Positions 1 through 54,641 of a stretch of DNA of 64,000 bases are shown here, one piece after another. The first letter of the stretch is position 1. Every line of letters starts with the position of its first letter. The stretch spans positions 30,380,001 to 30,444,000 of the forward strand of contig CM114271.1 of NCBI GenBank assembly GCA_050084515.1, written 5' to 3'. The position numbers and the translations under genes are program-made. Below the pieces are notes generated by a model. It worked only from the letters and a program-made list of their open reading frames with translations, ran no database searches and had not been told where the DNA came from. Source of the DNA: Blasia pusilla. Its lineage: Eukaryota.

Positions 1-2479
1 CATCACACTCTAGTGCAAACTTCTTGCTCGACGCGGTTACACATGCTCAGTGGCTAAGCGTCGAAGCTCCTCAATCAAGCCCCAAAGCGACACCTCTCCT
101 CCTTGGACTGATACGGCTACTATGACACTCCTCTCCATAGAAATGTCAAGAACAGGAGTATCCTCTGCGTGGACATGTCCCTCAATCAAATCACTAGGCC
201 AAGTGATGGCACTGCTAAATGCTGCTAAGGTCGCCATCTCTCCACGCCGTCGCTCGATCATTGCACCTGTGAATTGAATGGGTGATGACTTAAGGCGCCC
301 ATCACCTGACTGCCATCCTGGTCTGTAGGACGCTGACTATTCCCAATAATCAAGGGAAAACCCCATCGGGTATAAATATTGCTCCACCAACCAAGACGTC
401 GTAGGACTCTGCATCAGTCATTATTGCCTTGGCTTGCACCACGGACTGATTTGTAGGATGTCCCTGGCGAATCCTCACTATGACCTCCTGTCGGGTGATA
501 AATTGTGTGGTACTTGCTCCACCCAAGGATGTCTCTATCTGGAATGGATAACGCTCCACATTGGCTCTCCTCAAGCCTAATCCTCTTAATGACGCTTTCC
601 CCAACATCATGGGTTGTGCTCTTTAATCCAACAAGAGGCAGTGCGGACTAAAAGCTCTACCTCATGGACTCATCAACTGGAAGACCTCTCCCCGGTTATC
701 TAGCAAAAAAACACCAGGAGAAGCCATGGCACGCTCTATCGCGGGTCTAGCGGGCATTTCCGTCATCCTAGTAGTCGCAGCCTGCCATGAATCTTACGTG
801 GATAGTCCAAGCATCAGCTCTAAGGGCAGGTCCATCACCTCCTCTGCAATCACCTATGAACGTGATGCAAGAACTCCAACTCCACGCTCATATAGCCTAG
901 CGGCCAGCCTCGGTGGACGTACCTCCCAACGTCATAACATCGGAAGCAGAAAATAAAGGAGCTCGGTACACAATGGTGGTCGCCCCCAACAACGTGCTCG
1001 ACACATGCCCCTCCTGAGCATCAGCAATAGGAGTCGTCGCACTCGCTTCTCTCATCGCCCTCCATGCCTGCACACCAACAACATCACCAACTCTCGAGGA
1101 ACTCTGATAAGGACCCATCAATGGGGTTCTCATCGCCTAGGACAACGTGAAAGACTAAGGAAGCCTAGTCTGTTACTTGGCTTTCCCTCGCTATGGATCC
1201 AACTCTGCGGCTGCTCCATGCATCACAACTGCATTGGCCTCCATTTGGGCAACTACGCACATCTAACCAAGATCCTCTATATCTCTGGATGCTCCATATG
1301 ATGTCGATGCCACGGATCTGGCATCGGGTAACCTCAATTCCATAGCGGCAATCTGCTCCTCTAGATGCTGTATCCGAGTAGCCATCCCAGCCTCATGCCG
1401 AGCGTCTCCCTCAACACGTCTAGGTGGTGGGACTCTACCTCCTCCATGGGCAGATCCACCACCCTGTCGGGCAACTCCAGCTCCTTGTCCCCCAACGGGA
1501 CCACCTGTTGGACTATCTCTAGGCACACGTGGATCGGCTACTCGCTCTGGTGCCCTCTCTGGCCCTCGGTCCGGACGTAACTCAGGGTGTAAACTAAAAC
1601 ACGTGGCACATGTGTGACCATATCTCTGAAAATAGTCACACTGATAACCTCTTGGTGCATGTTGTGCGTATATATATCGCTACACAACATACATCGTTGG
1701 TCACATCTATACCACACAACATCGATCTTCTCCCCACACGGGTAGATCCAGACATGTATAAAAATTAACTCATACATATACATGGAGATCACACAACAAA
1801 AATAAAGAGTAGTAAAAACGGCACACTCGGCCTAAAACTCCACTCCTCAATCTACATCGGCATATCGAGCCTCGTCCACCCTACGTTATCAAGGAATCCG
1901 GACGCTAGCACCCTAGTCCTATCTCACACACATACAAGAGAGGTCCTCCAACGGCCCAACATAAGAAAGATGCCTTAGGAAAGCCATCTTCCTCTCTTAT
2001 ATAGGGTTGGGCTCTTCCTCTACAAATATCCATCCCCTTGGTAACGTGTACGCACAGGTTACGAGGGGCGGGTGACCTAGTCAACAAGTCACCCGGTTGT
2101 GAAAGACCTAAACAGGAAAGTTGTCAGAAACAATATTTTTGACACAATGGACCTATCCTCAACCTCATCTGATAGAGTGGGACAAAGTTACACTCAAGAT
2201 AGTCCGCTGGCTCCTACGTCCTATCCACGATAGATCTCGGCCTATTGGCTCCTTAGATGTGATAGTTGTCCTGCGTATACATATCGCTACACAACATACA
2301 TCGTTGGTCACATCTACACCACACAACACTGATCTTCCCCACATACGGGTAGATCCAGACATGTACATAAATCAACTCATACATATATATGGAGATCACA
2401 CAACCGCCCCCCTAGTTGGCACTTGGATTCCCCTAACTCCAGATAGAAAATATCACATCTCTTTGACATGACCTACTAC

Positions 2480-3890
2480 CCTGTACACATCTCGGACACA
2501 TCCATCGTCTCGTGGGAAGTACATCAGGAGGGGGATTCAGACATAAAATATGCCACCCTCAAGAACAACCATCACATACCAACATGGTGGCTGCATCCCT
2601 CTCAGATCCGCACAACATACACCTCAAGCCTGCATGTACCACCGCCAAGCTCGAATCCACTGTCTCATCTACGTTTGGAAGATGACATGGTGCACAATTG
2701 TGCACATGATCCTTCCAAACCATACCAACCCGTCCCTCCAACATGAGGACTCCGGTCGGTAATACCTTGCGCCCACGTAGGATCGTGTGCCCTGCAGTGA
2801 CATCTAGCGTCGTGGGTGCCGCCTGCTATAAATACACGTAATCTCCTAATCCCTGGACGATAACCTCCTCCACGAATGGTTGCATACCTCAATGTACTAA
2901 GCACACGATCTAGAAATACATAAGTTGTTCCTTCGCTTGCCTTGTCCGGTAGTGCCACCAACTCTATCCACTTGGAGAAATGCTCCACCATGACCAACAC
3001 GTACTTATGATGATGCCCCGTCAATGACAAAGGTCCCGCAAAGTCTAAATTCCACTGATAATCTAAACCCATAATCGGCAAAGGATGTAACTGCGGAGTG
3101 GAAGCATTGAAGGATGCTCGCACTGTGTCACATACCATACATCTGGCCACAAACTGTTGTACGCGAGTATGCATGCCGCGCCACCAATAGTGAATCTAGA
3201 GTAAGCTATAAGTATGCTTCACTCCAAAATATCCCAACTCCTCATGGGCATGTCGCACTACACGTGCTCCTTGGGAAGGATGAGGTACCACTCGTATCCT
3301 ACCATCTCTCCATACCCGCAAAATGTGAGTCTCCTCCCACCTGAACCTCATGGCTCTCTGTAGGATCCGATCCCACTCCCTAGCACTCATTGTGCTTGCT
3401 ATGACGCCAATGCGCAAGAACTCCACAACCTCCACGTCGTCATGGATATCACGACCACGTGTTGCCTCCTCACTGACATCCGTATCCAAAGACTCATCAT
3501 CCAACCCCACCACTGGAGTCATCACCTGCAACTGACCTACAATAGTCAACCAACAAAGATAAGCAGATGCATGCCAACCGGGCACCATCTCCTCATCATT
3601 TTCTCCGTGCCATCGAGCTCCTGTGTTGTCGCTCTGACTCGGACATGGGTTACAACTAAACCAATCCGCATCGTGGTTCAGCCAACCTGGCCTGTGAACG
3701 ACCTCAAACTCATACTCCTGTAGTAATAGAGCCTACCCAGCAAGCTTTCTCGTAAGCTTGTCGGACTCCATCAACCACCTCAACGGCTGATGATCAGTGA
3801 TAAGTGTGAAAGGGTTGCCAAATAAATAGCACCTGAAATGTGCCACGGCCCACAGTGCAGCCAAGCACTCTCCCTCGTAGGAGGTGTACT
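2480..3890 (-). pseudogene. E1 RNase H C-terminus, DDE integrase and C-terminal PHD finger (frameshifted)
   Basis: SYEGECLAALWAVAHFRCYLFG/TDHQPL (RH); HAHEELGYFG...CMVC (HHCC); LDFAGPL...VMVEHFSKW (integrase core); CMLCG...MLVCDGC (PHD). Confidence 0.88.
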
Positions 3891-4974
3891 TCACCTCTGC
3901 AATGTCCTCTGTGGCTCTTGAGCAATCAGAGGCGCTCGTGGTCCTCTCCCATGCTGTGTGCAGTCTCTTTGCCTATGGGCCCCTCCACATGTCCAACAAG
4001 ACAACATCGATCCCTGTTGGGCAACATATGTAGGTATGGGTCGTTGCCTCATAGGCTCACGGTACCCCGCCTGCTCTCTCGACACACTCGCCCGCTCCGG
4101 TGGTACTGGTGCTCGCTGTGGCACTTGTGGGGTCATCGTCGCTTGTGGACCAGTCAACTCTCGAGAAAATCCATCGGTCACTACGTGCTCCTCACTCATG
4201 TTAAGCTCAATACGTTCAGACAACTTAAAGACCACCTTCAATGTGGGCTTCGCTGTGTGAATCAACACCGTATCTTCGACTCTCCTCCGTAGTTCTCGGT
4301 CCAGAATCCTGTACCAATACTAGACTGATTGCGCCTCAATCACTCCATACGTAGCAATGATGAGCCTCCTCAGGTGCATGAATGCCTCTCACAATCTCAC
4401 TCGATCGTCGTTGAAAATCTTGTAGACTCTTCAGCTTGTCGGTGCGTACGCCCTGGTAGCTCTTCCCCAACTGTCAGAAGAACTCCACTATGGGACTAAA
4501 GTTGGGTGGCCCTCTACCACCAGAGGTCTCTGCCACATTGCCAGTCTCACTGCCCTCCTCTCCATCTAGTCTCCGGGCTGATGGTGTGGGTCTCTCTCCT
4601 CTCACGATCCCATCATATGCCTCGCGACCACTAGTGGACACATACCCTGGAGCCCAATACATCCTCCAGGCATGAATCTCTACTGAATATAGTGATCGAA
4701 ACTCCATGTAGTCATCCATTGGAGGACTCTCCAAGTGCTGGAACAACCCCTTCCATGCCATGAAAGGGTTGAATCGTATCGGGGTCCGTATCTCCTGGAA
4801 GTCGCACCACGTGTCAAACTTCTGGATAAAATCATCTAAGTTGATGGTGCCCACTGCACCTGAGGAACAACACATGCCCCGATGACCCATGTCGTCCATC
4901 TCTTGCCAAGTGATACTGCCTCCGTTTGATATCTCGTCACCAGACCCCATGTCTAGTGATGACGATCCAGCCAC
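3891..4974 (-). pseudogene. E1 gag (degenerate) with CCHC zinc knuckle
   Basis: ORFs 4474..4974 and 3891..4268 contain CWTCGGAHRQRDC and are nearly identical to the gag at 51276-52200. Confidence 0.8.
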
Positions 4975-7900
4975 GGATGGATGTCGAGGTAGCTCCTCAC
5001 TCGTAACCTCTCAGTATCTCAATCCACTCCGTGTCACACCACTACTACTGCTCGCACTACCCCGTTCTTCCGAACCGTGGAAGAATGCCGTGATGACAAC
5101 CCTGTCTCACCTGCTCAAGCACTCAGACTCACCAAGAGTCTCCTACACTCCTCACTAGCTCACCTATTCTAACGTCAATCCCGTGATGACACACTTGGCC
5201 TCACGCACACTCAACACTCGGGCTCACCATAAGCCTCCCAACTGACTCACCTAACCTAGCGACACTCTTGGATCATACATGCGACCCCTACTCGGCAACC
5301 ACCGTATATCCACCACATGGTACACATGAAAAGAGTCTACACTTGTCATCATCACTACAGCCACCTAGCACCAGCTACTACCTGATACCCAACACTCTCA
5401 ATCACACACGAGAAGTGCGGAAAAAGGGACTCGAATGGGTAACCTAATCATTCCCATCAACCTACTGCACCGTTAACATCCCCTCCTCCATGTAATATGA
5501 TGAGGTAAGGGATGGCCCCGTGGCCGACTCCGCGCCCCATCCGCCTCCGCCTAAAATATGCCCTAGGTGCCTATGACCTAACCAAACCTAGCTGACCTCC
5601 TCAAGGCGACTGCAACTCCTACATGCTCTTTCCTTACACACCCGCTTGCATACACTCGACGCCACACTGCATGCTACACTTGGCTGTTGTCCCCCGTCAA
5701 TCTGCAACAAAGAAATCTGCAAAAAATGGACAGCGCTTTCGCGCACAGCCTTCTGAACACAAAATGACCAACAAAAAATGCCAACCAACGTCTTCAGGGC
5801 TTCCTACCAATGCAACTCGCTTGCCTACCTGTAAACAACAAATTCCCACCAGCCCCTTGACATCTTTCTCATGTAAAAATAAAGAGTAGTAAAAATGGCA
5901 CACCCGGCCTAAAACTCCACTCCTCAATCTACATCGGTATATCAAGCCTCATCCACCCTACGCTATCAAGGAATCCAGACGCTAGCACCCTAGTCCTATC
6001 TCACACATATACAAGAGAGGTCCTCCAACGGCCCAACACGAGAAAGATGCCTTAGGAAAGCCATCTTCCTCTCTTATATAGGGTTGGGCTCTTCCCCTAC
6101 AAATATCCATCCCCTTGGTAACGTGTGCGCACAGGTTACGAGGGGCGGGTGACCTGGTCAACAAGTCACCCGGCTCTGAAAGGCCTAAACAGGAAAGTTG
6201 TCAGAAACAATGTTTCTGACACAATGGACCTATCCTCAACCTCATTCGACAGAGTGGAACAAAGTTACACTCAAGATAGTCCCCTGGCTCCTATGCCCTA
6301 TCCACGATAGATCTCGGCCTATTAACTACTCAGATGTGACATGCAGCACCATCTCCTCCGCCACGCTGAGGCACACGTCCATGACCCTAATGAGTGCAAT
6401 CGCGCTCATGATGGGCTCTACCACATGACCAAAAAGTAATCGTATGCCGCTGCTGCTAAGCCGCATATGAAAGCGCAGGTCTCTATGGCACGGCCTCCCG
6501 ATATCCTCCTTGAGCTCGTGGTGCCACAGTCAACCTATCTCCGAGTCCACGTTGCTGCACAGGTGGTGAAGACTATCATGTCAGCTCTCGCCCAAAACCC
6601 ATGGCGGCTACGCTCTCCTCCGCCATGTTGCGCTCAATATTCTCGGCGGTCCTAAAAACATCTCTCAACGTAGGGGAGGTGTTCATAAGAAGCACCCCCT
6701 CCCGCACTCATGTCCGCAGGGTCCGGTCCAGCATCACGTACCATGAGTGGATAGCTTGAGCCTCTGTCACCCCCTGAGTGACGTTCATCAACCGGCGCAA
6801 GCGAGTGTAAGCCTCAGGCAAACTCTTACCCGGGCGCCTCTGGAAGTCATGGATGTTCTGCAACTTCTCCGTCCGTACCCCCTGGTAGCTCGCCCTCAAC
6901 TCAACGAAGAACTCAACCACGGGGTTGAACTTGGGACGAACCCGACTAGATGGTGGAGCTTCTCCAGTGTGAGTGACCCCTCCTAAAACATCACTGGTGG
7001 AAGAGGAAGTAGCCTCTCTTGACTCCTCCTCCTCATCTGGGAACGGCTCCGTCCATGACACACACTGTGGGTCATAGTAGAGTCGCCATGCCTCAATCTC
7101 TTGGGCATATCCAAATCTCGCGAGTAATCCATCAATCACTCAAACTAAACATGCGGCACTCAATCTACACTCTCTCACTAAGACGTGTGTTGTGCGGAAA
7201 CAAGCAGCGTGGTGCGGAAAATCAACTGATCTATCGTCTTATCGACAAACCATCCTCAACCCTGGACATCCCACACAAGTCTATGTCCCCTAAACCCATA
7301 CATCATCGATTCTCTCAACATTAGCATAAAACCCAATATCCCAAATAACTTCCCAATACTCGGAAATCCTTCACACGTGCAGGGTAAGAAACCAGAATGG
7401 GTAAGTTGACAAGAATGTCGATGTCGCTCCTCGGCAACTGCAAATCTCGACCCCAACTTGATCGTGAAGACAACTCCTCCAATCAGCAAGTCGTACTCCT
7501 CTTGTACTAACGCTGCTCAAACCTCCTCAATGTGCGGTGTAGGTCCAACGGTCTGGTGCGGCACTAGCGGCACGGAACGGCTACAAACAGTACGTCACTT
7601 GGGAATGGGGTACGGCACTCGGCGGCATACCCTCCTCAATCAGCAATTCACAAGCTCCGCTCCTTAGTAAAGGAGCGGCTCCGCGATCGAGATGGTGCGG
7701 TGCGGCCACGATTGGCATGGCGCGGCAATCGGCAGCGCGTTGTGGCTATGGGCGTCACTTCAAGATACTCGATCGTCGTCAAGCGGCTTCCAATCATAAC
7801 ATGGTAGCATGAAATGAAAACTCAAACACCATAACCCGAGGTCACCTACCATCACTGATTGATGATGAAACTACGATGACGGTGGTGGCCAAAATAAAGT

Positions 7901-8799: not shown

Positions 8800-8803
<4 letters not shown>

Positions 8804-8888
<85 letters not shown>
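8804..8888. repeat. (CT)n microsatellite inside the A repeat of E0
   Basis: Pure CT run; the paralogous copy at ~29745 has only a short GA run. Confidence 0.95.
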
Positions 8889-8890
<2 letters not shown>

Positions 8891-10289
8891 TGAGGTTTAC
8901 CCCTCCCCTCTATCATGACCATACATATTATGTCGTAGAGTATAGTGTGCTAGTAGAGGTCATACCTTATGTAGGGCCGCAGTGTCTAGGTAGAGATGCG
9001 ATTTCATACATAGGGTTGGGGTTACTCAGTTGAGGGTGAGTTTTCTAGTAGGGCCCGCTCTTAGGTTGGAGGATATAAGATGGAGTGCACTCAAAGAACA
9101 GTCAATTCTTTGAGTTGAGCCTGTTGCGTTGGGAGTTAGCCTTGGTAGTGAGTAGAGCTCTTGGCTATGGTGTTTCCGCAAGCTTCGACCTAGATTCTCC
9201 CATCGTGGAGTGGGATTGTATGTGATTCTACACGTGTTTTATGATAGTAGGTCTTTCACAAATTTCACTCAAAGAACTGGAGTCGATCGATGGTAGCTTC
9301 GATTGTGGATCAGTAGGATCTTGTTAGGGCTGATTTTGTACTCGGCCGTGGATGTTCGTGGCTTGTGGCCTATGTTGGAGGTTTCAATCTGGTGTGTGAT
9401 TGGTTGGGAAAGAAGCGCCTTGTTGAGAGCTTTGCAATGTGCTTTAGATCGCCGGATTTCGTCAAGGGAGTTGGAAGTTATCAAGGATTGAAGATTCTGG
9501 TTCGTGTTTGACGGTTTTCTGATGCGGAGAGCTTGGAGTGCGGAAGCTCTGTTGAAGTTCATCCAGATCGGGTGAGAGGTTCCTGTTGCTTCTTGTATTG
9601 TGATCTCATGTGAAGCTATCTGCTTGAGTGTGTGGAGCGTTGCGGATTTCTGCGTGCATGGCGGGCGGAAGCGCCGGCGGATTTGCGATCTCGGAGGTGT
9701 ATGGACAGCAAGTTTGTCTGATTTTTAGCTCGGAGTACAGAGCTTGGTTGTAGCTGATTTTTTGTGGAGAGATAGCTATGGTGGTCAATTGAATTTTGGT
9801 TGAAATAGATTCAATTTTGGTCAAGGATTTGTGAAGTAATTGGTGATCAAAATTTTGTGGACTAGCTCAAGGTCTAGCTATGGTGGACTGCGGATCGGAG
9901 GGGCTGGTTGGTTTGTGACTCGTTCATTGTTGGAGACGCCTATCCCATTGGGGGCACCCTGGGTGGGCCTCTCTCCATAGTGAAGCATGGCGAAGCGTGG
10001 CGAACGGGGCGAGACTTTTTGGAGGGTAATGTTTATGCTATGGATTCTCCAATGCATGAGGAGGTAGAGGAGGTCCCTATTTCTGCAGCAGTGGCATCCT
10101 CATCGTTGGATGTGCCACTTTGGAGTTCAGGCGGTGCACAACGGCAAGAGGCTGATTGCCTAGTGCAGGAGGCTGGGTGTGAGGCTGTTATACCTCACGA
10201 GGAAGAGGAGGCCCCACGGCGGACTCCTACTTCTGGTCCACTTGGGTTATCCCCTTTGGATACTACACCCATTGTATGGCAGTATCCGC

Positions 10290-11260
10290 CGGAGGGCATT
10301 TGTGTGTTAGATCTCTTTGGTGGGATTAGCACTGGTTTGGCTACAGTGTTGCAGGCCGGTATTCTTGTGCGGAGATACGTGTATGTGGAGCGAGATGAGA
10401 CGGCCCAGAGAGTCTCATCCCGACATATCGGTCAGTTGATGCGGAGATATCCTGAGTTGTTGCCGCCATTAGCTATTCGTGGGTACCAGCGTGCTTTGCC
10501 GTCACACATTGCATTGTTAGGGGCGCAGGACCTTGAGAGGGTTGGTCTTGTGGATTTGGTGATTGTTGAATGGCCATGTCAGGGTCATACACGTGCTGGT
10601 CGTGGTGAGGGATTACACGACCCTAGGTCTCGATTGTTTTGGGAGATGTTACGGGTGTTACGACATCTTCAAGTTCATCAGGCACGTGCTCTAGCTTACA
10701 TTCTGGAGAATGTTCCATTGTTGGGTGACACTCGGACCCAGATGATGGCGAGTGTTCATGAGGTGCGGTCTTGGATTGGACCAACGGTGTTGTTGGATGC
10801 AGCGCGAGTTGGCTCACGTGCACATCGTCCACGCTTGTGGTGGACAAACTTGTTGCCTAGATAGGTTCTACGTCGAGCATATGATGTAGTGCAGCGGGAT
10901 CCTTGCCTTACAGTAGATAGTATCTTGGATACTGGGCGACTTTCTCATGTGGTGAGGGTTATTGATCGGTCACCCATGGCGGTGGTAAACCGTGTGGGCC
11001 AGCCTAGGATGGCACTACCCACATTTGTGAGTTTTCCCTCGTCACATGCATACAGGGAAGGTGGTCCCGGGCTTGTATGGGATTCTCATGTACGACAGTT
11101 GGTGGAGCCTAACGCTGATGAGAGACAGCGTGCGATGGGATTTGCTACTGGTGTGACAGCGGTTGCTTCCATTTCTAAGGCTTCACGACGTCATATGTTG
11201 GGTTAGGCCATGGACCTGAATTGTTTGACTTGGATTTTGAGTCTTGGTATGGCCGAGCAG
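10290..11260 (+). pseudogene. DNMT3-like C5 cytosine DNA methyltransferase domain within the E2 pol region
   Basis: Motif I VLDLFGGIST; motif IV DLVIVEWPCQG; motif VI ILENV; motif VIII AHRPRLWWTNL; motifs IX/X ERQRAMGF...RRHMLG*AMDL. In-frame TAG stops at 10862 and 11204. Confidence 0.9.
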
Positions 11261-11497
11261 CGTCGACTTTGGACTATGTATGTGGGTCTTCCACCCCTTG
11301 TAATGAGCTCGATGGCTACCGGGACGGTAGAGGCATCGGTTGGGGGCGAGGAGAGTAGTATTTTGCATCCTTGGAGTAAATGAGATGTAATGGTTGGGCA
11401 TGTGAAGTTGGTTGCTCATGCTGGTGGTGGAGTTATTTGCTCAGATGATGGTGTAGCTAAGGGTGTACCATCTTGTGAGGGGGTTGCGTAGTAGCCA

Positions 11498-12846
11498 ATG
11501 GCATCGTCCTCTCCCTCTAGTGTGCCAGTAGAGGAGACTTGGGAGCCATTACTTAGGCCCAAGCTTACGGGAGGTGAGAAACGATGCTTCACACAGTTCC
11601 TACGTGCTTATAGGAGTTGTTTTGCCTTTAGCATGAAAGAGTTGGGTTCTCTGGTTGGACCCGGTATACGGATTCATTTGGCTAGTGATACGCCAATCTT
11701 CCGTCGTCCCCACCGATATAGTGATATGGAGAGGGACCTGATTCAGAGTAGGACGTTGGACCTTTTGGAGGCTGGATTAGTGGAGTTGTCGGCAGGAAAG
11801 TGTAAGTTCTTCCATGAGGATGTTGAGTACTTGGGTCATGTGATTTATCCAGGTGGTTTGGGAGTTCAGCAAGCAAAGATGGAGGCTATTGCCCTTATTC
11901 CGTGTCCGGTAGATGTGAGTAGAGTTCGGGCATTCATGGGATTGGCGAACTACTATCGAAGGTATGTGAAGGGATTTAGTGCTATGGCAAAGCCTTTGAA
12001 CCAATTGCTGAAATCAGATCAAGAGTGGCAGTGGGGAGATGATCAGGAGAGAGCTTTTGTGGAGCTTAAGGCCCAATTGGTGGCGGCGTCTATCTTGAGG
12101 AGACCTATCAGAGGGTGCCAATTTCAGTTACAGATTGATTGGAGTAGGTTGGGACCTGGAGCGGTGTTGACACAACATGATGATGAGCACATGGAGTTTG
12201 TGGTGGCCTATGCAAGTCGTTCGAATAATGCAGCGGAGTCGCGCTATAGTTCATATGAGGGAGAGTGCTTGGCAGTAGTGTGGGCTGTGGCACACTTTAG
12301 GTGTTACTTGTTTGGTACAGAGATGTGGATGAGAGTGTGTTCTCATCGGGCAGAGCTCTTTCGGAGAGTTATGCCAACAGCCTTTGAGAATCTTGCCATT
12401 GCTCAACACAGGGATACGTTGCGATATGCAACCATTCGGGATGGAGGTTATCGACCATCTATTCATAGGTTCCATGTGGGGAACTATGTCTATTTGCAGC
12501 AGATTGCACCGACAACGTTGGATGTGACGGCAGGCCGCACTATTTTACGAGTGCGCGAGGTGTTAGCTTCTGGAGTTCTCATATTGGAGGGTCGTGATGG
12601 AGTTATTTGGAAGGACCATGTGCGTAATGGTGCGTCATGTCATCTTCCAAATGTGGATGGTACTGTTGACCCAAGCTTAGCCATGATACGTGCTAGCTTG
12701 AGGTGCATGTTGTGTGGAGTGCTAGCTAACGCTTGGCCCGTATGTTGGTGTGTGATCGGTGTTCTAGGGGTTGGCACATGATGTGTTTGACTCCACGTAT
12801 GGATTTTGTTCCTACTGGAAGGTGGGTTTGTCCTCGATGTACTTAG
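11498..12846 (+). pseudogene. E2 partial RT, RNase H, integrase C-terminus and PHD finger (two internal deletions)
   Basis: PIFRRP...LLEAGLVE fused directly to KCKFF...EYLGH (RT core lost); VRAFMGLANYYRR; VAYASRS...SYEGECLAVVWAV; integrase core missing. PHD CMLC...CDRC...WHMMC...WVCPRC* at 12704-12846 (one frameshift). Confidence 0.88.
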
Positions 12847-15800
12847 GAGGGGTAGATGACTTGATCTTTGCTTGATATGGATTACAAATGTGCGACTAAC
12901 GATGGGGCAACCTAGCACCCGGCCTTCTCATTCGTGCACCCAAGAAGGTGTATAGCATGTAGTAGATGTATAGGGCTACAGGAGTTAGAGGACCTAAACT
13001 TGATTAGGGGGCGAGTTGTGGTACACTTGTGTTTGTGGATGCTCTTGTCTATGTTATGTATGTATGTGAGTATGGTATGTCAGCGATGTATGTTGTATGA
13101 CGATGTGGATTCGCACGACAAGTGTCATGACCACACAGATTATGTCGTAGAGTATAGTGTGCTAGTAGAGGCCATACCTTATATAGGGCCCCAGTGTCTA
13201 GGTAGAGATGCGATTTCATACATAGGGTTGGGGTTTACTCAGTTGAGGGTGAGTTTTCCAGTAGGGCCCGCTCTTAGGTTGGAGGATATAAGGTGGAGTG
13301 CACTCAAAGAACAGTCAGTTCTTTGAGTTGAGCCTGTTGCGTTGGGAGTTAGCCTTGGTAGTGAGTAGAGCTCTTGGCTATGGTGTTTCCCGCAAGCTTC
13401 GACCTAGATTCTCCCATCGTGTAGTGGGTTTGGCTCGATTGTATGTGATTCTATACGTGTTTTATGACAATAGGTCTTTCACGGATTTCACTTGTGGTAC
13501 ACTTGTGTTTGTGGATGCTCTCGTCTATGTTATGTATGTATGTGAGTATGGTATATCAACGATGTATGTTGTATGACGATGTGGATTCGCACGACACCTC
13601 TCCCAAGCTCTCTCCATGGTAACCTATGCTCCCAAGTCACCTCCTTGGCTCTTGACCTGATGTAGGACAATCAAAGGCCATTTACTAAAATAGAAAGTCA
13701 ATCATATACTCAAAATGATACTCACCTAAAATAGTAAGTTCTTTAATATGGCTCCAGATAAGCCAAAACAAAGGGGAAACCTACTCTCTCAGGTTTCCCT
13801 GGGCCTCAGTAGGTCATCCTTAACCTCTTGAGTCTGTCCTCCACTACTCGCGAAGGCGCTCTACTAGATCTCACTGATCTATCCTAAAAGACGTGACATC
13901 CATGTAACGAAGTTACAAAAGGATGCAAAGAGGATATTTCCTTAATCCGTATGTGGCACGGACACTGACTAGTAGCTACTAATGCATAGCCTATGTTGGT
14001 GCACAAGACCAATCATGGCGAATTTTTTTAATTTTTTTGTTACCCACGTTACAAAAAACTTTTCATGCTGCCTATTGCCTTGTTTTAATTTAGGAGATGT
14101 TTGTAAATCAAGAAACTGCTCTCCCACAATATTATACTAGTGTATAGCCTATGTACGAGACCCATCATGATTAAAAAAGTAAACAAAAAAATCATTCTTA
14201 CACCACTAGCATGTGGCAATTAAAAAAAAATGTGTTTACAAATTAAGAGAACTATTCCAACAAAAAAATATCTACACTAATATTTTAGAACCATGTCTTG
14301 TACTGCTTGCTTGAGCAATTGACACTTGGATATTTTGACCAATGCCAACCTGCCACATGTCCCATATATCTTAGGGTTACTCAATAGTCATTTTTGGGGA
14401 TAGTTCAAGTTAGTGGGTCACATTTTAAAGATTTTAGAGTAATAGGGCGTCTCATATAGAGGGATGTAAGTCTTGCAATGTCTTTTGGGTGTTTGACTAT
14501 AAAACATGGACAACTTCCGTCTATGCCAAGGGATATTTGATTTTATTAGATGTCGTACTATGCATATTGCATGCCCACCTCTTCCACCACCTCGCATTCT
14601 AGCCATGGACACGACATCCATGATTATGACCTAAAGTTTGAGACGTCCTAATGATGGGTAATCTACTCATGATTGCTTGTGGCATCTACTAGTAAATTAG
14701 TATAGCAAACTAAGATTAGAATCTACCAAAATTTTCTTTATATATGCATTCTACAAAATAGGCACCAGGAATAATAAGGAATCTTAGACTGTGTTGTGAG
14801 TGTCAAACATCAAGATCCCTTTTTCTTCTTTCTATTTTTTGCATTTGTAGTGGAGGGGAGGTGGTCCTTCCTATTTACTTCGGGGCAAGTGAAACATTAC
14901 AACATCTTACAAATTAAAAAACTCTTTGACCTAAGAATGGGCCACATTGAGACCTAAGAGACTCACCCTAATCTTATGGAATCTCCCGTAGCCTACTTAG
15001 AACCATCTATTTCATTGACCGAGGTCGAGGTTAAACACTCCCCCTCCCAATTGCTCACACATGCCAATTTAATTGAGAGTAATCCATATTATAGTGGGTG
15101 ATCTTACTTGCATAATAAAACAAAATATCAACAAGATACTATTTTGTCACTTAAGGTGGCATGTTGGTAGGAAAATGATATCATTGGAGGAAGTAATAAG
15201 ATATCCAGTAATGGAGAACTAATGAACGGGAGGAGTGGGGTTCAAGAAAAACCTCAACTACTCAATATTTTTTTAAATAATTTTGTGGAAAACCTTCTTT
15301 TTAAACTTAACATGGGCATGTTAACAAGTTAAGTCGAGAGGGGCTTAAACGTACTAGGAAAAGAAAAAGAAGGGGAAACAATTTCTCCCTCGGCAACCCA
15401 ACTAGACCTTTGTGTCGAAAGGTAATTTTAGGGATGCTCGGGCGTCCTAGAGAGGAAGAAGAAAGTAAATTTTAATAGAAATTGGGACGCAAAACTCATC
15501 GAGATACAAAGGAGGGGGGTGTAGAGAGGCAAAAAAACCCACGGGCATATATCGACCTCGGAGAAACAGAAAAATATTTCTCCTTTAACGACCAAAATCA
15601 CCAACAATAAACAACAACAACACTTATAGAATTATGGCTGTTACTAAGCGGACCTCTAGCATTTAACGCCAATGGCCACTTCGTAGTAGCCATAGCTCGT
15701 TACCCATCGGAAGTACAAAAGAGGGGGACTCAAAGAGTCAAAACCTGAAGGCCACAACAAGACCAGAAAAGGAAGAAAGGGCATTCCCCCAGACGAAACT

Positions 15801-22240: not shown

Positions 22241-22976
22241 ATTTTCCGAACCTCCAGGCATACATCTTGTTGTGTTTCCGAACTCTGTTATGAAAACTCA
22301 AAAACCCTAATCGAGGGTTTCATATTCATGGTTATGGGTGTATCAAAATACTTTATTTTTACAAGGCGCAGAGTAACTACTCGGAAATGGGTGCCTTGGG
22401 GGTTAAGGCTAATCCCTATTGAACCTGAGGAGTCCCCTATGGACCTTAACTTGATTATCCCCATTGGTTGCGTGACCGAGCAATTTCTCTTTCTTAATGT
22501 ACAACCGTGAGAAAAAGTAATGATATTACACATAAATTCAATTTTTTGCATTTAGCACGTGAAAATAAAAAAGACACTCGTTCACTAAAAGAATATAGAT
22601 GATGACCCCATCGAAAAATTCACCCCCACGAAGTCCGGGATCCGCGTGTCCCATTCGGCGGAAAATGGTCAGGATTCAGGAAGAGCTCCGTGATATCCGT
22701 CGGTCGTTCGTCAGTCGTCTGGACTGCAGGAGAAGGCTGGGAGGATGTGGTGGATGCAGCTCCGCGATTCAGTTCTTGTGAGTGTCAATTGTAACAGGAG
22801 CTGGAAATGTTTCGCAATTCGACCAGAAAGACAATAATCCCGAGGAGCAGTTGACCGTGCGGACTGATTCGGGAGAGGAGAAGGTTAATTCGGCGGCGTT
22901 TTTTTTTGCAGCGTTGAAGAATTGGAGCTGAGGTGATGGTCGTGAATTGAGGGGCGGGGATATTCGGTTCAGCGAA

Positions 22977-25900
22977 ATGGAGAACGCAAACGCGGATCGT
23001 TCGTCTGCGCACTGGAGCCGCCGGGGATTTCCAATGTCAACAAGCTCCATGCTTCTCGCAGTGTGCATCGCTTCGGTGCTACTGGTCCTCGTTTATCTCC
23101 GTTCTCGTTCCGATGGGATTCGCCTTCCGCCGGGACCTCGCGCTTGGCCCATAATAGGGCACCTCCATTTGCTGGGAAAGTTGCCCCATCGATCTTTAGC
23201 CAACCTTGCGATGAAGTACGGGCCGCTCATGTCCTTGCGACTAGGAAATGTCTATGCGGTGATCGTTTCGTCTCCTGATATGGCGCGGGAGATCCTCAAG
23301 AATCAGGACCAGGTTTTCGCCTCGCGTCCCTCGACCAGTATCGCCGAGGTCTTCGCCCACGGTAGACAGGACATAGTGTGGGCACCATACGGCCCACAGT
23401 GGCGCTTCTTTCGAAAGGTCTGCACCCTGGAGCTTTTCACAGCGAAGCGCATCGGACACTTTCAGGTGTGTACTCCGTTCTTTCTATACCAAGCACCGCA
23501 TCTCTAGGGCCATGCGAACTGCACTGCGTACCCACATAAATCACTACTTGCATCCACGGAATGAATCAGAGGGCAACTTCCTCCTGCGTGCTCCCAAAGA
23601 AGCCTTCAGCACACCATCCGTAGGTTTGCCCATGAATGAATGTGTGATAAATTATTAACTCGGGTGGATCGGTCATCCGTGACAGCACTCAGTAAAGGAG
23701 GAGATTTTGGCCACGGTGCAGCGTATACTCGCACTGGGACATGGAGGGAAGCCCGTAGAGTTGGATGAGAAGCTGTTGGAAATGTCTAGTAACAGTATAT
23801 CGCGGATTCTCTTCGGCAAATCCTTCTCGACACGCGAGAGCCTGGGAGAGGCCAAGGAGTTCTGGGCGCTGTTCAAGGAAACCTTCGAAGTGGGAGCAAC
23901 CCTCATTCCCGCGGATGTGATTCCCTTTTTGAAAGGTCTAGACGTCGGTGGTCATGAGAAGCGACTACGCAAGTTGACAGAAAAGTTCGACGCATTTTTC
24001 GCGTCCATCATAGCCGAGCACCGAGGAAGAGCGGAATCCGAACGCAGCGGGAAGGCAGAAGACTTCGTGGATGTTCTGTTGACTATCAGACACGACAAGG
24101 ATGGATCTCTCCTCACGGATTCTCAGATTATCGCCATTCTCGGGGTGCGTAAATCCATCCAAACCGAGTTTGATTAGATCAATTCTTTCCTATCGTACTG
24201 GACAGCAAGTACCATCGTCGCCTTCGATCACGTGTGTTAGAGAGCCACAGAATGACACGTGACGTCCTTTCTAACTCGCTTTGCGCGTGACCAATGTGGG
24301 GGGTTACGAGTAAAGTAATGCCGGCGGTTCAAATTGGAAATTTTCGATTTATATTAAGCTTTTTATCAAAAAGACATTGGGATAAAAAATAAAATATTAC
24401 TTTTTATAACATCTTAGTAACATGTTAGAACTTTTAGAATCACGGGTTTTATTCGTCTACGATTTTAAAAATATAAATTCATCTAATTTTAACTTTTAAA
24501 AAAATAATTAAATAATAAATTAATTCACACGTGATATTTTGGGATTGAAATTTTAATTTTAATGGAAAAATAAAATATTTTCATTAATTAAATTTAATTA
24601 TTTAGTGAATTTAACTTTGGTTTAAGAATGAAAGGGTGAGATTAGATGCTTTTCAAACTTTAATGAAAGATAGAAATTATTTAAAATATTTGGGTATTAT
24701 TTAAAAGAGAAAATTTCAATTTCAAGATTTGAAAACTAGAGATAAAATATTTAAAGAAAAATAATTATAAAGGACTTCAAATCGATTTTCGTGTGTTAAT
24801 ACGGGCATGCCAACTACTACTATTAACTAGCACAAGAAAATGAGACCCGTGTCTTAATCCAAAAGATACAGTGGTAAGGGAGGGCCTTCAAGTTCAGGCC
24901 TTAGGGTGGGGAATATGGAGGGGAACTTGTGATGTGCTTTCACGGGTCCTAACTAGTATGAGATACTACTGTTTTCAAGTGGAAATTTTTGATATATGAT
25001 CTTGTCTAAATCAAGAAATAATGAAAAAGAAAAGAGGAAAGAAAATATGCAATGGGTCAAAAATCAGTCAAAAATGATGAAAGTAAATTCAAAGAATGAT
25101 GAACGGTGTTTCAAAACAAATTTTCGGAAGGAGTGATTCTATATTTTCACTGAAAAATGGGGGGTAGAAAATTGATTTATTTTCCTAATTAAATTTAAAA
25201 AATACAGAAAAAAAATCAAAAACAAATAGAATGTGTACATTAATACTCTTTGAACCGAAATCTGACCTTGAAATCTTTAAGTCTAGAAGGCCTGTTATAA
25301 GGTTGTTAATATTTTATGACCATCTATCTTCTTGTTATAAGAGTGTATACTTGAAGTGGATAAAGTTTGACTAGTATTTGTGTGCATACTATATGCGTCG
25401 ACCATATTTATGATCTATCTAGTCAACATTGAATTTCGTTTCTTCTTTTTGGAAGAACAGAATCGAATGCCAAACTTTGAATTTTCCCTGCTTCAGATCT
25501 GCTAAATAGATACAAATACAAAGGAGAATCTGCCTGATGTTTTTGGCTGGTGAGTCAAAAATTGAATTGGAAATCTGCAAATTCTTCCGGCTAGCTCAAC
25601 GTGCGTTACCCCAATTCTCCCAAGACATTAGGACCAATAACGTTCTTCCAATAAGAGGATAAAACAATGGAGAAAGTGATATTTTCTTTCATGTTCTTAT
25701 TCTTAAATTTGTTCTCTCTTTATTGAAATTGTTTATTATGTGCTTTTGCTGTTAAACTCATTTTCCTTTTCCTATTAAAAAATAAAATTGATGGGAAAAT
25801 CTGATCCGCATGCATCCTTTTGATACAGACACCGATTTCTTTTTCTTTTCTTGTGCCCGAAATTCTACTCGATCTTCCTTCGGTCTATCCAAAGTTCACT

Positions 25901-26645
25901 TCATCTTTCCAAGACTTTCCTTTATCCAAAGTTCAATTGTCTTGAGGGAAACCTCTTTTTTTCCGCGAGTAATGTATATGTTGTCGGCGTGCAGGATATG
26001 CTGTTAGCTGGTACGGATACCTCCGCTAATCAAGTGGCTTGGACTACTTCGGAGCTCCTTCGACGACCCGAATATCTCCGGAAAGTCCAGGCCGAACTCG
26101 ACGCCGTGGTGGGGAACGAAAGATTGGTAGAGGAGTCGGACCTTACTCGACTCAAATACCTGCAAGCGGTGGTCAAAGAATCGTTCCGACTCCATCCCGT
26201 GGCTCCGTTGCTTCTGCCGCATGAATCGATCATGGCCACCATCGTGGCAGGTTACCATATCCCGGCAAAGACCAGAGTTTTGGTGAACGCCTACGCGATT
26301 CAGAGGGATCCTGCAGTGTGGAAGGATCCGCTAACCTTCGATCCAGACAGGTTTCTCAGAAGCTCCATAGATTTGAAAGGCCAGGATTTTGAGCTCTTGG
26401 CGTTCGGATCGGGTCGGCGGGTCTGCCCGGGGATGAACTTGGGCTTGTTAACCATACAATTGACTTGCGCTTTGATCCTCCAGACCTGTGAAGTTTCTCT
26501 CCCCGATGGGATGAATCCAGAGGACGTCGACATGGGCGAGGGTTTCGGGCTAACCATGCCTAGAGCTCAACAACTCCGAATCGTGGCCTCTCCACGCATG
26601 CCGACATCACTCTCCGATGTGCCCAATATCAAGATTTCCCCTTAG
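22977..26645 (+). CDS. Cytochrome P450, CYP71 clan (A-type), ~532 aa; exons 22977-23465, 23686-24144, 25995-26645
   Basis: TM anchor followed by LPPGP-WPIIGHL; WRFFRK; AGTDTS (I-helix); ESFR (ExxR); PDRF; heme motif FGSGRRVCPG. Phase-0 GT-AG introns. The start could alternatively be the ATG at 23033. Confidence 0.95.
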
Positions 26646-28749: not shown

Positions 28750-28836
28750 AGAGGTATTACGCTAGCTAAGCTTGTAATGATTGTGGCTCCCCAAAAGCTC
28801 ATTTGACCCCAAGGTAATATGTATCCTATAAAAGCT
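28750..28836 (-). pseudogene. cob: Mitochondrial cytochrome b fragment (NUMT)
   Basis: [28 protein letters not shown]. Confidence 0.9.
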
Positions 28837-28849
28837 GGTAGAGTACCAC

Positions 28850-29841
28850 AATGGTATGGTTTGGAAAGATCTTGTGCATAACTATGCGTCATGTCACCTT
28901 CCCAACATTGACGGTATAATTCATCCGAGCTTAGAAATAGTTTGTGTATGCTTGAGATATGTATTGTGTGGTTTTTCCCTTGGTGCAACCATTGTGCTTG
29001 TGTGTGATGGATATTCGAGAGGGTGGCATATGGCATGTTTAACGTTACCTCTCACTAGGATTCCTCAGGGACGATGGATGTGTCCCACATGTACATAGAG
29101 TAGATACTAGGTAGTTATGCATTCCAACTTGTATTTGTGATATGGATGACAAGAAGACGATTAATGATGGGGCCACATAAGCACCTGACCTTTTGGCTCT
29201 TCGTGTCCTAGAGATGTATGTCATAGTAGGTAGGAATAGATGGTTAATATTTGGAGTTAGAGGGACCTAATCACGAGCTAGGGGGGAAATTGGAGATATT
29301 TTGGTACTCTATTGTCTCGATGACATTGTTTGGATGTCATAAGTTGAGCATGGGATCCTGTGTGTTTATGTATTTATTTGGTAACAATGATGTATATTGA
29401 ATAGCAATGTGTATGCGCACAATCACTGTCACATATTTTAGAATATATCGATAAGTCTATAGTAGAGTGTCTTCAAGGATAGTGGAGGATAGTCTCAAGA
29501 GTTTGAGGATGACCTGTTGAGGCCACAAGTAACGTGAGAGAGCAGGTTTCCCCTTCATTTCGGCTCATTTGGAGTCATGTACAGAAACTTACTATTTAGA
29601 GTAAGTCACCATTTTGAGTGTAGCTGACTTCCCAATTTGGAAAGTGGCCCTTGACCTCCTACAGCAGGTCAAGAGCCAAGGAGGTGACCTACGAGCATAT
29701 CTTACCGGGGAGAGAGTTTGAGAGAGGGAAGGGGACATACCAAAGGAGAGAGAGCTTTGTAACTCATTCTCTCTTTGTTGAACCTCTTGGCATGAGGCGG
29801 TGGTGCTATGGTTCTTCTTGTATGTGGATTTGGTTTGACAT
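28850..29841 (+). mobile_element. 3' remnant E3 of the same Gypsy group: integrase C-terminus, PHD, PPT, B1, start of A2
   Basis: [19 protein letters not shown]...[13 protein letters not shown]...WMCPTCT*; PPT AGGGGGGAAA at ~29280; B ~29290-29425; A from 29427 (TGTCACAT) is homologous to the 5' end of E0. Confidence 0.8.
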
Positions 29842-37959: not shown

Positions 37960-39070
37960 GGGAACACTAGATAGCAAAATATCTCGCATTCTTAAAATAG
38001 TGCGCTCTACGATCACATCCAATGTCGTAGGTGATGTTTGTTGCAAGTAGACAGAGTCTCCCTAATGAAACCTCCGGATAGTCAATCAATAATTACCTTC
38101 CCAAATAGTCGCATATCTCAACGTATCGCGTATTTACGCAATCTCCAAGTTCTCAAATGTCGTGGGCATCACTCTCTAAAACAACTCAACCCTCTGAGAA
38201 CATGCTCGCATCCATACATAAGGGTCATCGAGGTTCAACACCTCACCAACATCTTGATAAATGGCTAGAGGTAAATCTGGCTCTCGGCCATAAATCAACA
38301 AGTACAATGAGAAATACCTTAAGGATGTATGCTTGCTGAATCTGAATCCCATCGCTAGCCATGACAACTAGAGATTCCAATCTCCTAGGTGACCTCTCTA
38401 CAAGCCATACTTGCATAAACCCATCTTCACCGTTTGCTCATCCCTCTCCACTAGTCCATCCGCCTCAGGATGATCTTGTGAAGTGGTGCGGTGGTCAATC
38501 AGTGTCTGATCATACAAGGCCTAAAACTCCCTACAAAACTATGTACCCTGTTTTTTCAACACCTCAGCTCGTGCGCCATAATGACTCAACACTCAATCTA
38601 GAAAGGCATACGCTACTTCCTCACTCGGGTTGTCAGGCAATGCAACCAACTCTATCGACTTTGAAAAGTGCTCAACCATCATCAATACATGATGACTATG
38701 CCCCTCCATTAAAGGTAAAGGTCTTGGAAAATTCAAACTCCATCTATAACCTAAACCCATGATTGGAAGTGGATGCAATTTTGGAGTGAGCGCATTGAAA
38801 GATGCCTAGACCCAATCACATACCATGCACCTAGCAAAGTGTTGAACATCAATCTAGATGCCTCGCCACTAATATTGTATCTGGAGCAAGTTGTATGTCC
38901 ACTTCATTCCAAAATGACCCAACTCCTCGTGGACATGCTGCACCGAACATGCTTTCTACGAAGGATAAGGCACTACATGTACTCTACCATCCTCACAAAC
39001 TCATAATACACGTGTTTCTTCCCACCGAACCATTTTGCTCATTGGAGGATGTGATCTCGCCCTCTAGTAT
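37960..39070 (-). pseudogene. Decayed integrase of the same Gypsy group
   Basis: HPLPIMGLGYRWSLNF...MVEHFSKSIELVALPD; WMRACSQRVELF; PTTLDVIVERTILR. Confidence 0.8.
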
Positions 39071-45599: not shown

Positions 45600-46170
45600 A
45601 GCTGCACAGTGACATAGTCTGGAGTCTACAGTCTGGAGTCTGGAGTTCGAGCAACTTTGGAAGTTCGCGCATTCGGGGAATGGACCCCCTACAGTGGCAG
45701 CAGCAAGCCCTCGGAGTCTCGGACGAGTCGGACGGTCTGGGAGTCTGCACTCTGGAGTCTGGAGTTCGAACATCGAGCAACTTCGGAACTTCGCGACTTC
45801 GCGCCTTCGGGGATTCGGGGAATAGACCAACTCTAGATGCAGCTGCAAGCCCTCGGAGTCTCGGACGAGTCGGACGGTCTAGGAGTCTGCACTCTGGAGT
45901 CTGGAGTTCGAACTTCGAGCAACTTCGGAACTTCGCGACTTCGCGCCTTCGGGGATTCGGGGAATGGACCAGCTCTAGATGCTTGTTTGCAAGCCCTGAG
46001 TCTCGCATAAGTCGGACGGTCCGGGAGTCCAGACGGAGTCCGGATGTGGAGTTCGGGCAAATTCGGAAGCTCGCGCCTTCGGGGATTCGGGGAATGGAGC
46101 CCCTGCAGCGGCAGCAGCAAACCCTCGGAGTCTCGGACGAGTCGGACGCAGGGTCTGGGAGTCTCGGACC
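45600..46170. repeat. GC-rich ~140-bp tandem repeat (about 4 copies) inside the hAT
   Basis: CCCTCGGAGTCTCGGACGAGTCGGACG and TTCGGGGAATGGA recur at roughly 130-145-bp spacing. Confidence 0.85.
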
Positions 46171-54100: not shown

Positions 54101-54641
54101 TGAGTTATATTTTTTAAATGCCCTGTGTCTTACAAACTATTTATTTGGAGACTCACATGACAACTCCCATCACATTTGTATGAATGGTCACGATGTGCAA
54201 AATACCCATGAGCAAAATGAGTCGGGTAACCTTCCATATTGTGTTGGAAATAGAAAGGAAGGATGTGGCATGTTACGAGAAGGAATGTTGATGTGGCATG
54301 GAAGGGAATGATGATGTGGCATGGAACGTTTAGGGTTCCTCTCGTTGTTTTGTCCCGAAGTGAGTGTGTGGCGGGAGAGAGTGAGTAGAGTGCAGAGTGT
54401 GGGACGTTCAGAGTTTCCTCCAGGCGGGAGTGGAGAGTTCGGAGGTCGGGAGTGGGAAGTTTGAAGATCAGGGGAGTGGGGAGGTCGAAGTGGAGAGGTC
54501 GAGATCAAGTGGGATGTTCACAGATAAGGATGATGGTCGGTGTTTGAGTCCTTTCACGACAAGTGTGCAATCTTATGAACAACAAATTCTGAAGACTCGT
54601 TTTGCAAATGAGAGTTGCAAAGTGCAACATTCTTGGCCGCG

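Follow-up and report, generated by a model that had tools for sequence, protein, structure and literature searches.

Can a retrotransposon both pick the chromatin into which it inserts and mark it afterwards? The question is raised by a stretch of 64,000 nucleotides from Blasia pusilla (contig CM114271.1, positions 30,380,001 to 30,444,000; 64 kb of eukaryotic DNA with 45% G+C, hereafter the window), which holds decayed Ty3/gypsy long terminal repeat (LTR) retrotransposons of the "Gypsy-DNMT3" lineage in a land-plant genome. The initial annotation had proposed that pol of these elements ends in a PHD finger, a chromatin reader, and that the finger is paired with a methylation writer. We found the remains of such a finger in three element copies, here called E1, E2 and E3, and a finger and a DNMT3-like methyltransferase carried together across a clade of related elements. 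Among the possible roles of the finger, a chromatin tether for integration is the one we favor.

A PHD finger behind the integrase tail

In E2, on the forward strand, the first Cys codon of the finger lies at 12704 and the pol stop codon at 12844–12846, as read from the translation. The first Cys pair (CxxC-G, 12704–12718), aligned to the first ligand pair of the relatives, is in the frame of a 428-codon open reading frame (ORF) at 11495–12781. The remaining finger (12742–12843, or 12742–12846 with the pol stop), comprising Cys-Asp-x-Cys, the His, a Cys and Trp-x-Cys-Pro-x-Cys and aligned by tblastn to residues 995–1028 of the relative P0001, is in another frame. The change of frame between the two halves places the frameshift within 12719–12741, a stretch whose length we compared with E1 and the relatives. 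The Pfam profile PF00628 scores 38.0 bits for 12733–12846 (cut-off 24, E = 1.6e-9), with no contribution from the part before the shift. The E1 finger, on the reverse strand at 2487–2621, retains the full spacing and is interrupted by an in-frame stop that falls after the second Cys pair and before the His; its tail and finger together are 60% identical to P0001 residues 908–1028 (tblastn), and no stop codon stands right behind the last Cys. E3 is an isolated forward-strand fragment identified by PF00628 and tblastn (28838–29098), with nothing other than the integrase tail, the finger and a stop. PF00628 matches its ORF (28832–29095) with E = 1.8e-6 and 28.3 bits against the same cut-off, and the finger, which runs from the codon at the first-ligand position (28958) to the end of the ORF (29095), has Tyr at two ligand Cys positions.

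An intact C4HC3 pattern in one frame is thus found in none of the three window copies, E2 being frameshifted, E1 interrupted and E3 altered by the two Cys-to-Tyr changes. The coordinates and the domain given by the initial annotation were exact and real, respectively, its fingers being intact in no copy; the profile search that it had proposed recovered E2 and E3, and the E1 ORF piece up to the internal stop has no Pfam match, PF00628 included. All three fingers are pseudogene remnants, a point that the initial annotation did not make, and nothing functional is left at the locus, so that the window feature is itself a fossil, useful for annotation and not for function. PF00628 scores in relatives are 31–45 bits. 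Judged by sequence, the motif is a true PHD finger, and a chance pattern is excluded because it recurs in three independent window copies and hundreds of relatives.

The annotated position "at the integrase C-terminus" is literally true of E1 only, because E2 has lost its integrase core and E3 is a fragment of tail plus finger; it is among intact relatives that the description holds generally. We searched the E2 ORF against the longer proteins of a collection of 5.8 billion proteins, obtained 171 matches and took the 120 that were listed as the relatives for analysis. Precomputed Pfam assignments place PF00628 in 64 of them by hand count, and a regular expression for C4HC3 finds 65. Architectures were derived by our own domain mapping, with methyltransferases sought by phmmer using the DNMT parts of P0011 and P0039, which added about 45 to the 7 proteins labeled DNMT in the precomputed Pfam data. 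With reverse transcriptase (RT), DNMT, integrase (IN) and PHD finger named in order, we counted 30 RT-DNMT-IN-PHD, 27 RT-IN-PHD, 4 DNMT-RT-IN-PHD, 4 RT-DNMT-IN, 3 DNMT-RT-IN, 3 DNMT-RT, 3 RT-PHD-IN, 1 RT-DNMT-PHD, 34 RT-IN and 11 RT-only proteins. In every protein with the IN-then-PHD order (61 of 61), the finger starts 182–208 residues beyond the end of the integrase-core match. Finger and integrase share single open frames, as at locus L001 (5086–8226), where 989 open codons precede the finger, and in an alignment of 19 RT-IN-PHD proteins neither the eight zinc ligands nor the Trp that precedes the last Cys pair varies. In the type of element found in the window's subclade, the finger is the last domain of the integrase-containing ORF and follows the SH3-like integrase tail. 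In the other subclade, in which the methyltransferase lies between RNase H (RH) and integrase (P0027, P0032, P0036, P0065, P0075 and others), the protein continues for 120–430 residues beyond the finger, and Pfam recognizes no family there except for a chromodomain in P0068.

The integrase tail closes about 20 residues before the finger with the motif Asn-x-x-x-Cys-His-Leu-Pro, found in E2 at about 12620–12645 and also in E1, E3 and the relatives; its Asn, Cys and Pro do not vary among 19 relatives. As a separate observation, molluscs are the commonest taxon (score 0.76) among protein atlas clusters that combine an integrase zinc-binding domain, a PHD finger and an integrase core, and integrase–PHD fusions may therefore also exist in animals.

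The initial annotation had likened the position of the finger to that of the chromodomain in chromoviruses, a reasonable comparison in light of the distances. In five relatives the finger starts 210–219 residues past the Pfam rve match, and in two outgroup elements chromodomain matches of 19.5 and 19.9 bits, below the cut-off of 25.1, start 215 and 207 residues after rve, in the slot that the finger occupies. P0068 has both modules: its integrase is followed by the PHD finger and, 25 residues on, by a clear chromodomain (46.3 bits), forming a PHD–chromodomain tandem. The chromodomain profile PF00385 has no match in the tails of E1, E2 and E3, and among the relatives it matches P0068 only, behind the PHD finger.

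A reader and a writer carried together

The second half of the annotated pair is also present: a DNMT3-type C5 cytosine methyltransferase lies within the element coding region in both E2 and a further copy, E4. The E2 enzyme (9887–11236, forward strand) matches PF00145 with E = 4.4e-7 and keeps the PCQ and ENV motifs, although its frame contains stops ending at 10864 and 11206. DNMT3A, DNMT3B or DNMT3C accounts for 29 of its 30 PDB matches, and it is 63% identical to P0010 from Marchantia (tblastn).

To place these elements, we computed a FastTree tree of the RT and integrase core from 94 of the 120 relatives, leaving out 26 with an RT match shorter than 300 residues or an integrase match shorter than 150. 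Support values are local. The window ORFs are not rows of the tree and are tied to it by their 58–78% identity to members of one clade. That clade, of 67 rows and SH-like support 100, contains all IN-PHD proteins. It comprises an RT-DNMT-IN(-PHD) subclade (31 rows, support 100), a (DNMT-)RT-IN(-PHD) subclade that includes the closest relatives of the window copies (33 rows, support 98) and three rows (Klebsormidium nitens P0064, P0069 and P0071) that lie at the base and in neither subclade. Outside the clade, three proteins have a PHD finger between RNase H and integrase.

A complete C4HC3 finger was found in 48 of the 49 clade proteins that continue for 235 residues or more beyond the integrase core, the sole exception being P0051, whose finger is without the last Cys pair. 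Members with no finger end too early, such as the partial K. nitens DNMT protein P0064, which stops inside the integrase tail. By this comparison the finger is kept wherever the ORF is complete. A DNMT-like domain occurs in the same ORF in 36 of the 67 clade members and in none of the 27 proteins outside the clade; the other 31 members cannot show an upstream DNMT because they start at most 215 residues before the RT. The location of the methyltransferase differs between the subclades, being upstream of the RT or between RNase H and integrase, and the slot of the finger is constant relative to the integrase.

Two further data sets gave the same picture. A scan of metagenome contigs yielded 80 loci, 58 of them with a match to tail plus finger. 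The loci with at least 1,700 bases before the RT numbered 28, and in 24 of these a DNMT-like part precedes the RT on the same strand, giving the order protease (PR), DNMT, RT, IN, PHD; none has a DNMT between RT and integrase, and four (L002, L034, L065 and L072) have no DNMT. A regular-expression check of finger integrity in the 58 loci (7 intact, 14 with stops, 37 unmatched in the chosen frame) is unreliable because most copies are frameshifted. We also searched a tail-plus-finger profile against 1.84 billion representative proteins and obtained 17,488 matches at E ≤ 0.001, 4,135 at ≤ 1e-10 and 513 at ≤ 1e-30. The looser counts surely include matches to the PHD finger only, and the best 150 all cover both tail and finger. 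Among these 150, the C4HC3 pattern is present in 139 of 148 new proteins, and a DNMT accompanies the finger in 31 of the 36 new matches that also carry RT and integrase; P0374 has a PHD finger without a DNMT. With co-occurrence in 36 of 67 ORFs, 24 of 28 loci and 31 of 36 representatives, reader and writer are, as far as domain matches identify them, a clade-wide pair and not a peculiarity of the window, in agreement with the pairing that the initial annotation had described. Together they are found in at least several hundred sequence clusters from green algae and early land plants.

In part of the clade the two are encoded on opposite sides of a stop codon. A conserved in-frame stop separates the protease–DNMT part from the RT-RH-IN-PHD part, both being in the same frame. 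Comparison of stop positions locates it in E2 at two consecutive in-frame TAG codons (11489–11494, forward strand), in E4 at 63327–63329 and elsewhere at L001:5083, L003:5900, L021:2686, L039:9962, L057:9962 and others; at L001 a single stop lies between ORFs of 1,369 and 1,047 codons. In two locus families the stop is TAG at 11 of 13 loci and TAA at the other 2, with the contexts TAG CAA CCC and TAG CAG TTA, compared with TAG CAG CCA in the window's E4; a third family has TAG TTG GAT (8 loci). The CAR-YYN context resembles that of leaky stops of plant viruses, and by this analogy programmed readthrough of the stop is possible. The stop would also account for the RT-IN-PHD proteins that gene callers predict with no DNMT attached.

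What the finger may read and do

To classify the finger, we compared the last 64 residues of P0001 with all PDB sequences and obtained 81 distinct chains at E ≤ 0.01, 60 of which were listed. The best match is PHD1 of KDM5A (E = 6.5e-16), about 50% identical over the finger by a hand count on the alignment. Next among the 60 of 81 listed are PHD1 of KDM5B, Lid and KDM5D, then CHD4 (PHD2), MLL3/KMT2D, ATXR5, UHRF1, WSTF, DPF3, PHF12, PHF21A (BHC80), BAZ2A/B, AIRE, ORC1b and KAT6A; the fingers of BPTF, ING and TAF3 are not among these 60. Methyl-lysine cage fingers such as those of BPTF and ING2 have the cage Trp two residues before the His, a position occupied by Gly in 54 of 62 family fingers. 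With PHD1 of KDM5A and KDM5B, BHC80, BAZ2A/B, AIRE, UHRF1 and PHD2 of CHD4 the family shares the strand before Cys-Asp-x-Cys and the stretch Pro-Pro-Leu...Pro-x-Gly-x-Trp-x-Cys, although the family finger sits on a transposon integrase and those of KDM5A, BHC80, BAZ2A, AIRE, UHRF1 and CHD4 sit on host chromatin enzymes.

An AlphaFold model covering the C-terminal 239 residues encoded by the L001 ORF, built from an alignment of 8 rows, places beta strands at 110–160 (predicted local distance difference test, pLDDT, about 75), a low-confidence segment at 162–176 and the finger at about 181–234 (pLDDT 70–83). Foldseek searches of PDB matched the whole model to Tudor-PHD and tandem-Tudor-PHD (TTD-PHD) proteins (PHF1, MTF2 and UHRF1) and the integrase tail to a foamy-virus intasome. 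The finger alone superposed at 1.5–2.2 Å, with 40–49% identity, on BHC80, BAZ2A, UHRF1, ATXR5, DPF3b and PHD2 of CHD5, and the titles of the matched entries include BAZ2A with an "unmodified H3K4" peptide and UHRF1 with the "unmodified H3 N-terminal tail". In sequence and modeled fold, the family finger resembles readers of the unmodified H3 tail (the H3K4me0 class) and not the methyl-lysine cage class. The earlier proposal of a reader of the H3-tail type is in line with this, the nearest solved relatives reading the unmodified H3 tail, the same state that had been cited for the ADD domain of DNMT3.

By analogy with the chromodomain of chromoviruses, the finger may serve as a chromatin tether for integration, a reading to which we assign a probability of roughly 0.55. 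The finger would bind the H3 N-terminal tail with unmethylated Lys4 and tether the complex of integrase and cDNA to nucleosomes away from active promoters, following chromodomain logic with another mark. More speculatively, the element's methyltransferase might afterwards modify the newly inserted copy or the DNA around it.

Several observations weigh against this reading. That the finger binds histones, targets integration or is coupled to the methyltransferase is in each case something that we infer from resemblance and analogy, and the specificity of the PDB neighbors for unmodified H3 is in part taken from PDB titles and in part presumed by us. PHD fingers can bind non-histone partners. 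The L001 model is poor overall, with a mean pLDDT of 55.9. In the RT-DNMT-IN-PHD subclade the loop that joins the first Cys pair to the second has a net acidic character (mean +2.3), and in the window's subclade a net basic one (mean -0.9); the finger of the latter may therefore bind differently, as a basic loop could weaken or change the binding of a basic histone tail. In the same subclade the DNMT is encoded in the upstream ORF, before the TAG, which weakens the case for a direct coupling in cis to the finger. The ratio of nonsynonymous to synonymous rates (dN/dS) of the finger is 0.20–0.38 in the four of ten pairs for which it could be computed and counts for little as evidence because the other six are saturated at synonymous sites. 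The insertion sites in the window, with six copies or fragments in 64 kb and one of them 2.3 kb past a cytochrome P450 gene, give no usable evidence of targeting.

The main rival to the tether, and one compatible with it, is that the finger serves the element's methyltransferase by replacing the ADD domain, so that methylation is directed to, or licensed at, nucleosomes unmethylated at H3K4. The ADD domain of DNMT3 is specific for H3K4me0, the mark read by the PDB neighbors of the finger; the element's enzyme is itself DNMT3-like, judged by its PDB matches, the Pfam assignments of the relatives include neither ADD nor PWWP, and DNMT and finger are co-inherited across the 67-row clade. In the RT-RH-DNMT-IN-PHD subclade the DNMT is directly N-terminal to the integrase, and a single mature DNMT-IN-PHD protein is therefore conceivable. 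In the window's subclade, however, both the conserved TAG and the whole of RT-RH-IN lie between DNMT and finger, the distance of the finger is constant relative to the integrase and not to the DNMT, and a PHD finger occurs without a DNMT in the neighboring RT-PHD-IN group and in P0374. We consider this role possible, with the odds clearly against it. It is more doubtful still that the finger is a zinc module that reads no histone and acts in integrase multimerization, nuclear import or the binding of a host protein or nucleic acid. That invariance is confined to the zinc ligands, the Trp and a few residues of the core would suit such a module, as would the basic loop of the window's subclade and the known examples of PHD fingers with non-histone ligands. 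It fits less well with the identity of about 50% to KDM5A PHD1, with the 40–49% identity to BHC80, BAZ2A, ATXR5 and DPF3 in structural alignments, with the retained hydrophobic strand before Cys-Asp-x-Cys and Pro-Pro-Leu stretch, or with the chromodomain that stands in tandem in P0068.

By far the least probable account is that the Cys and His residues form a pattern by chance, or that a fragment of a host PHD gene happens to lie beside transposon debris, in either case outside pol. It would be compatible with the lack of an intact window copy and with the isolation of E3, and it is refuted by Pfam scores over the cut-off, by tail plus finger in three copies, by the continuous RT-RH-IN-PHD ORFs of intact relatives and by the 513 representatives at E ≤ 1e-30.

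With the tether as the preferred reading, the interpretation as a whole is plausible, better grounded than before and unproven, and the clade-wide pairing is its more interesting idea. One could go further and suppose that a green-lineage clade, from chlorophyte algae to liverworts and mosses, has long carried a reader–writer pair, an integrase PHD finger for unmethylated H3K4 together with a DNMT3-like enzyme, that it chooses such chromatin and methylates its own new copy, rebuilding the logic of the host DNMT3, and that in the window's subclade a leaky TAG sets the doses of the two; we regard this extended scenario as tentative and rather unlikely to hold in full. Targeting by chromodomains and captured DNMTs as an answer to host silencing are known in principle and have mostly been described apart, and the family offers a testable case of whether a transposon both picks and marks its chromatin.

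The window's elements, their neighbors and known systems

Mapped by tblastn with two relatives, the 64 kb contains six copies or fragments that all belong to a single kind of element. E0 (61–910, reverse strand) is a fragment of the protease region aligned to P0010 residues 60–342. E1 has lost the RT N-terminus and the DNMT and spans RNase H to finger at 3912–2484 (reverse strand); its RNase H, integrase zinc finger, integrase core and C-terminal tail (2622–3912) were identified by tblastn and PF17917, with 58% identity to P0001 residues 404–733 (E = 1e-116) and with sub-threshold matches to Integrase_H2C2 and rve. In E2 (forward strand) an internally deleted RT and RNase H (11537–12349; PF17919, E = 7e-27, and tblastn) is joined straight to the integrase C-terminal, SH3-like tail (12326–12703; 63% identical to P0001 residues 857–1010 by tblastn), the core present in E1 being deleted. 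E4 (61395–63998, forward strand, tblastn) has a protease, a DNMT-like part, the in-frame TAG and the start of an RT, and it runs off the window before the integrase and finger. E5 (37963–39039, reverse strand) is an integrase that, according to its translation, ends before the position of the finger and is 56% identical to P0001 residues 581–940 (tblastn). The window copies combined and the relatives bear out the Ty3/gypsy pol order of protease, RT, RNase H and integrase. Among the 120 of 171 matches listed for the E2 ORF, those from named organisms that come closest are from Calypogeia (78%), Marchantia (68–80%) and Sphagnum (76%).

E1 and E2 share a layout of split direct repeats, A-coding-B-A-B, and not two simple LTRs. 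In E1 (reverse strand) repeat A upstream of the coding region lies at 5875–6339 and the 3' repeats at 1665–2404, in the order B (2404–2272), A (2262–1798) and B (1797–1665); in E2 (forward strand) the 5' repeat A lies at 8913–9269 and the 3' repeats at 13016–13596, in the order B (13016–13120), A (13125–13492) and B (13492–13596). The two copies of repeat A are 93.8% identical in E1 (5875–6339 against 1798–2262) and 93% identical in E2 (8913–9269 against 13125–13492), and both insertions therefore look old. A dinucleotide microsatellite, giving a Ser-Leu run in one frame, lies at about 8800–8900, directly upstream of the E2 5' repeat.

The window also holds other features. Three ORF pieces matching PF00067 form a multi-exon cytochrome P450 gene at 22932–26645 (forward strand), with E3 about 2.3 kb downstream; its best named relative is from Riccia (59%), and liverworts and Sphagnum come top among P450s of normal length. 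The remnant of a hAT-type DNA transposase at 42412–44493 (reverse strand) matches zf-C17orf113 and, more weakly, DUF4371 and the hAT dimerization region. A distinct and more distant retroelement RT fragment lies at 47731–48644 (reverse strand), with 25–31% identity to P0001 and a weak RVT_1 match. Tandem repeats occur at 52725–54138, 45651–45934 and 54762–55011, with periods of about 347, 142 and 125 bases.

A PHD finger in Gypsy elements and a DNMT3 in Gypsy elements have each been published, as has the association of PHD fingers with transposable elements, and to this extent the novelty is smaller than the initial annotation implied; what we did not find stated in the texts searched is the clade-wide pairing of the two. 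The clade-wide integrase-terminal PHD finger in Gypsy-DNMT3 is likewise not found stated in these texts, outside of which lie subscription papers, supplements and a Chlamydomonas thesis, and the same is true of the unmodified-H3 class of the finger and of the presence of the family in bryophytes. Nothing relevant came from searching the literature for DNMT3 retrotransposons in Marchantia. The "Chlamyvir" clade was considered as a carrier of the finger and rejected, as the papers, in the portions available, describe chromodomains there and never a PHD finger.

The lineage itself was described in 2018 in Klebsormidium (de Mendoza et al., PMC5890265) and is named "streptophytes (Gypsy-DNMT3)" in the accessible part of a 2026 preprint (10.64898/2026.05.21.726589). 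KnitGypsy-Dnmt3 of Klebsormidium nitens combines a Ty3/gypsy pol with a DNMT3-type methyltransferase, as in the window, and the legend of figure 4 of PMC5890265 gives it the unusual A-coding-B-A-B repeats common to E1 and E2. The term "PHD" has 0 occurrences in the main text of that paper, a count that does not extend to figure 4c and the supplements, which may show one. The published KnitGypsy-Dnmt3 sequence is not a row of our tree, and two K. nitens proteins, the DNMT-bearing P0064 and the RT-IN-PHD protein P0041, are both within the 67-row clade. In contrast to KnitGypsy-Dnmt3, the window's host is a land plant, and the best named matches are from liverworts and Sphagnum.

REM1, a Chlamydomonas transposon attributed to Perez-Alegre 2005, reportedly carries a PHD finger. 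Gypsy-7a_cRei, like the family described here, belongs to the green lineage and has a PHD finger in its Gypsy polyprotein. According to the available text of PMC9940879, its insertions into intergenic DNA outnumber the expectation by a factor of 2.6, a published hint in favor of the tether, and the authors suggest that insertion may be targeted. In contrast to our family, the legend there gives the PHD before the integrase, an order that may match the RT-PHD-IN group beside the clade, and the portions available for Gypsy-7a_cRei and REM1 mention no DNMT. PHD fingers are a common accessory domain of Chlamydomonas transposons according to the accessible part of PMC8557442, and PHD and Chromo domains are often found together with those of reverse transcriptase and integrase according to that of Grau-Bove et al. 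(10.1101/2021.11.30.470311). EpiLTRs, as presented in the same part of the 2026 preprint (10.64898/2026.05.21.726589), likewise combine one or more DNA methyltransferases with a chromatin reader in an LTR pol; theirs are an adenine methyltransferase, a DNMT sister to DNMT4 and a chromodomain, whereas the elements here have a DNMT3-like enzyme and a PHD finger.

The closest functional parallel is with chromoviruses, in which tethering of integration by the chromodomain was demonstrated by Gao et al. 2008, as cited in the available text of PMC6673714 and 10.1101/2021.11.30.470311. They likewise have a histone-reader module behind the C-terminal domain of the integrase, with equal spacing from the core, and the proposed role is alike, to tether integration to a chromatin state. 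The family described here differs in having a PHD finger in place of the chromodomain and in the mark that is likely read, the unmodified H3 tail as opposed to H3K9 methylation.

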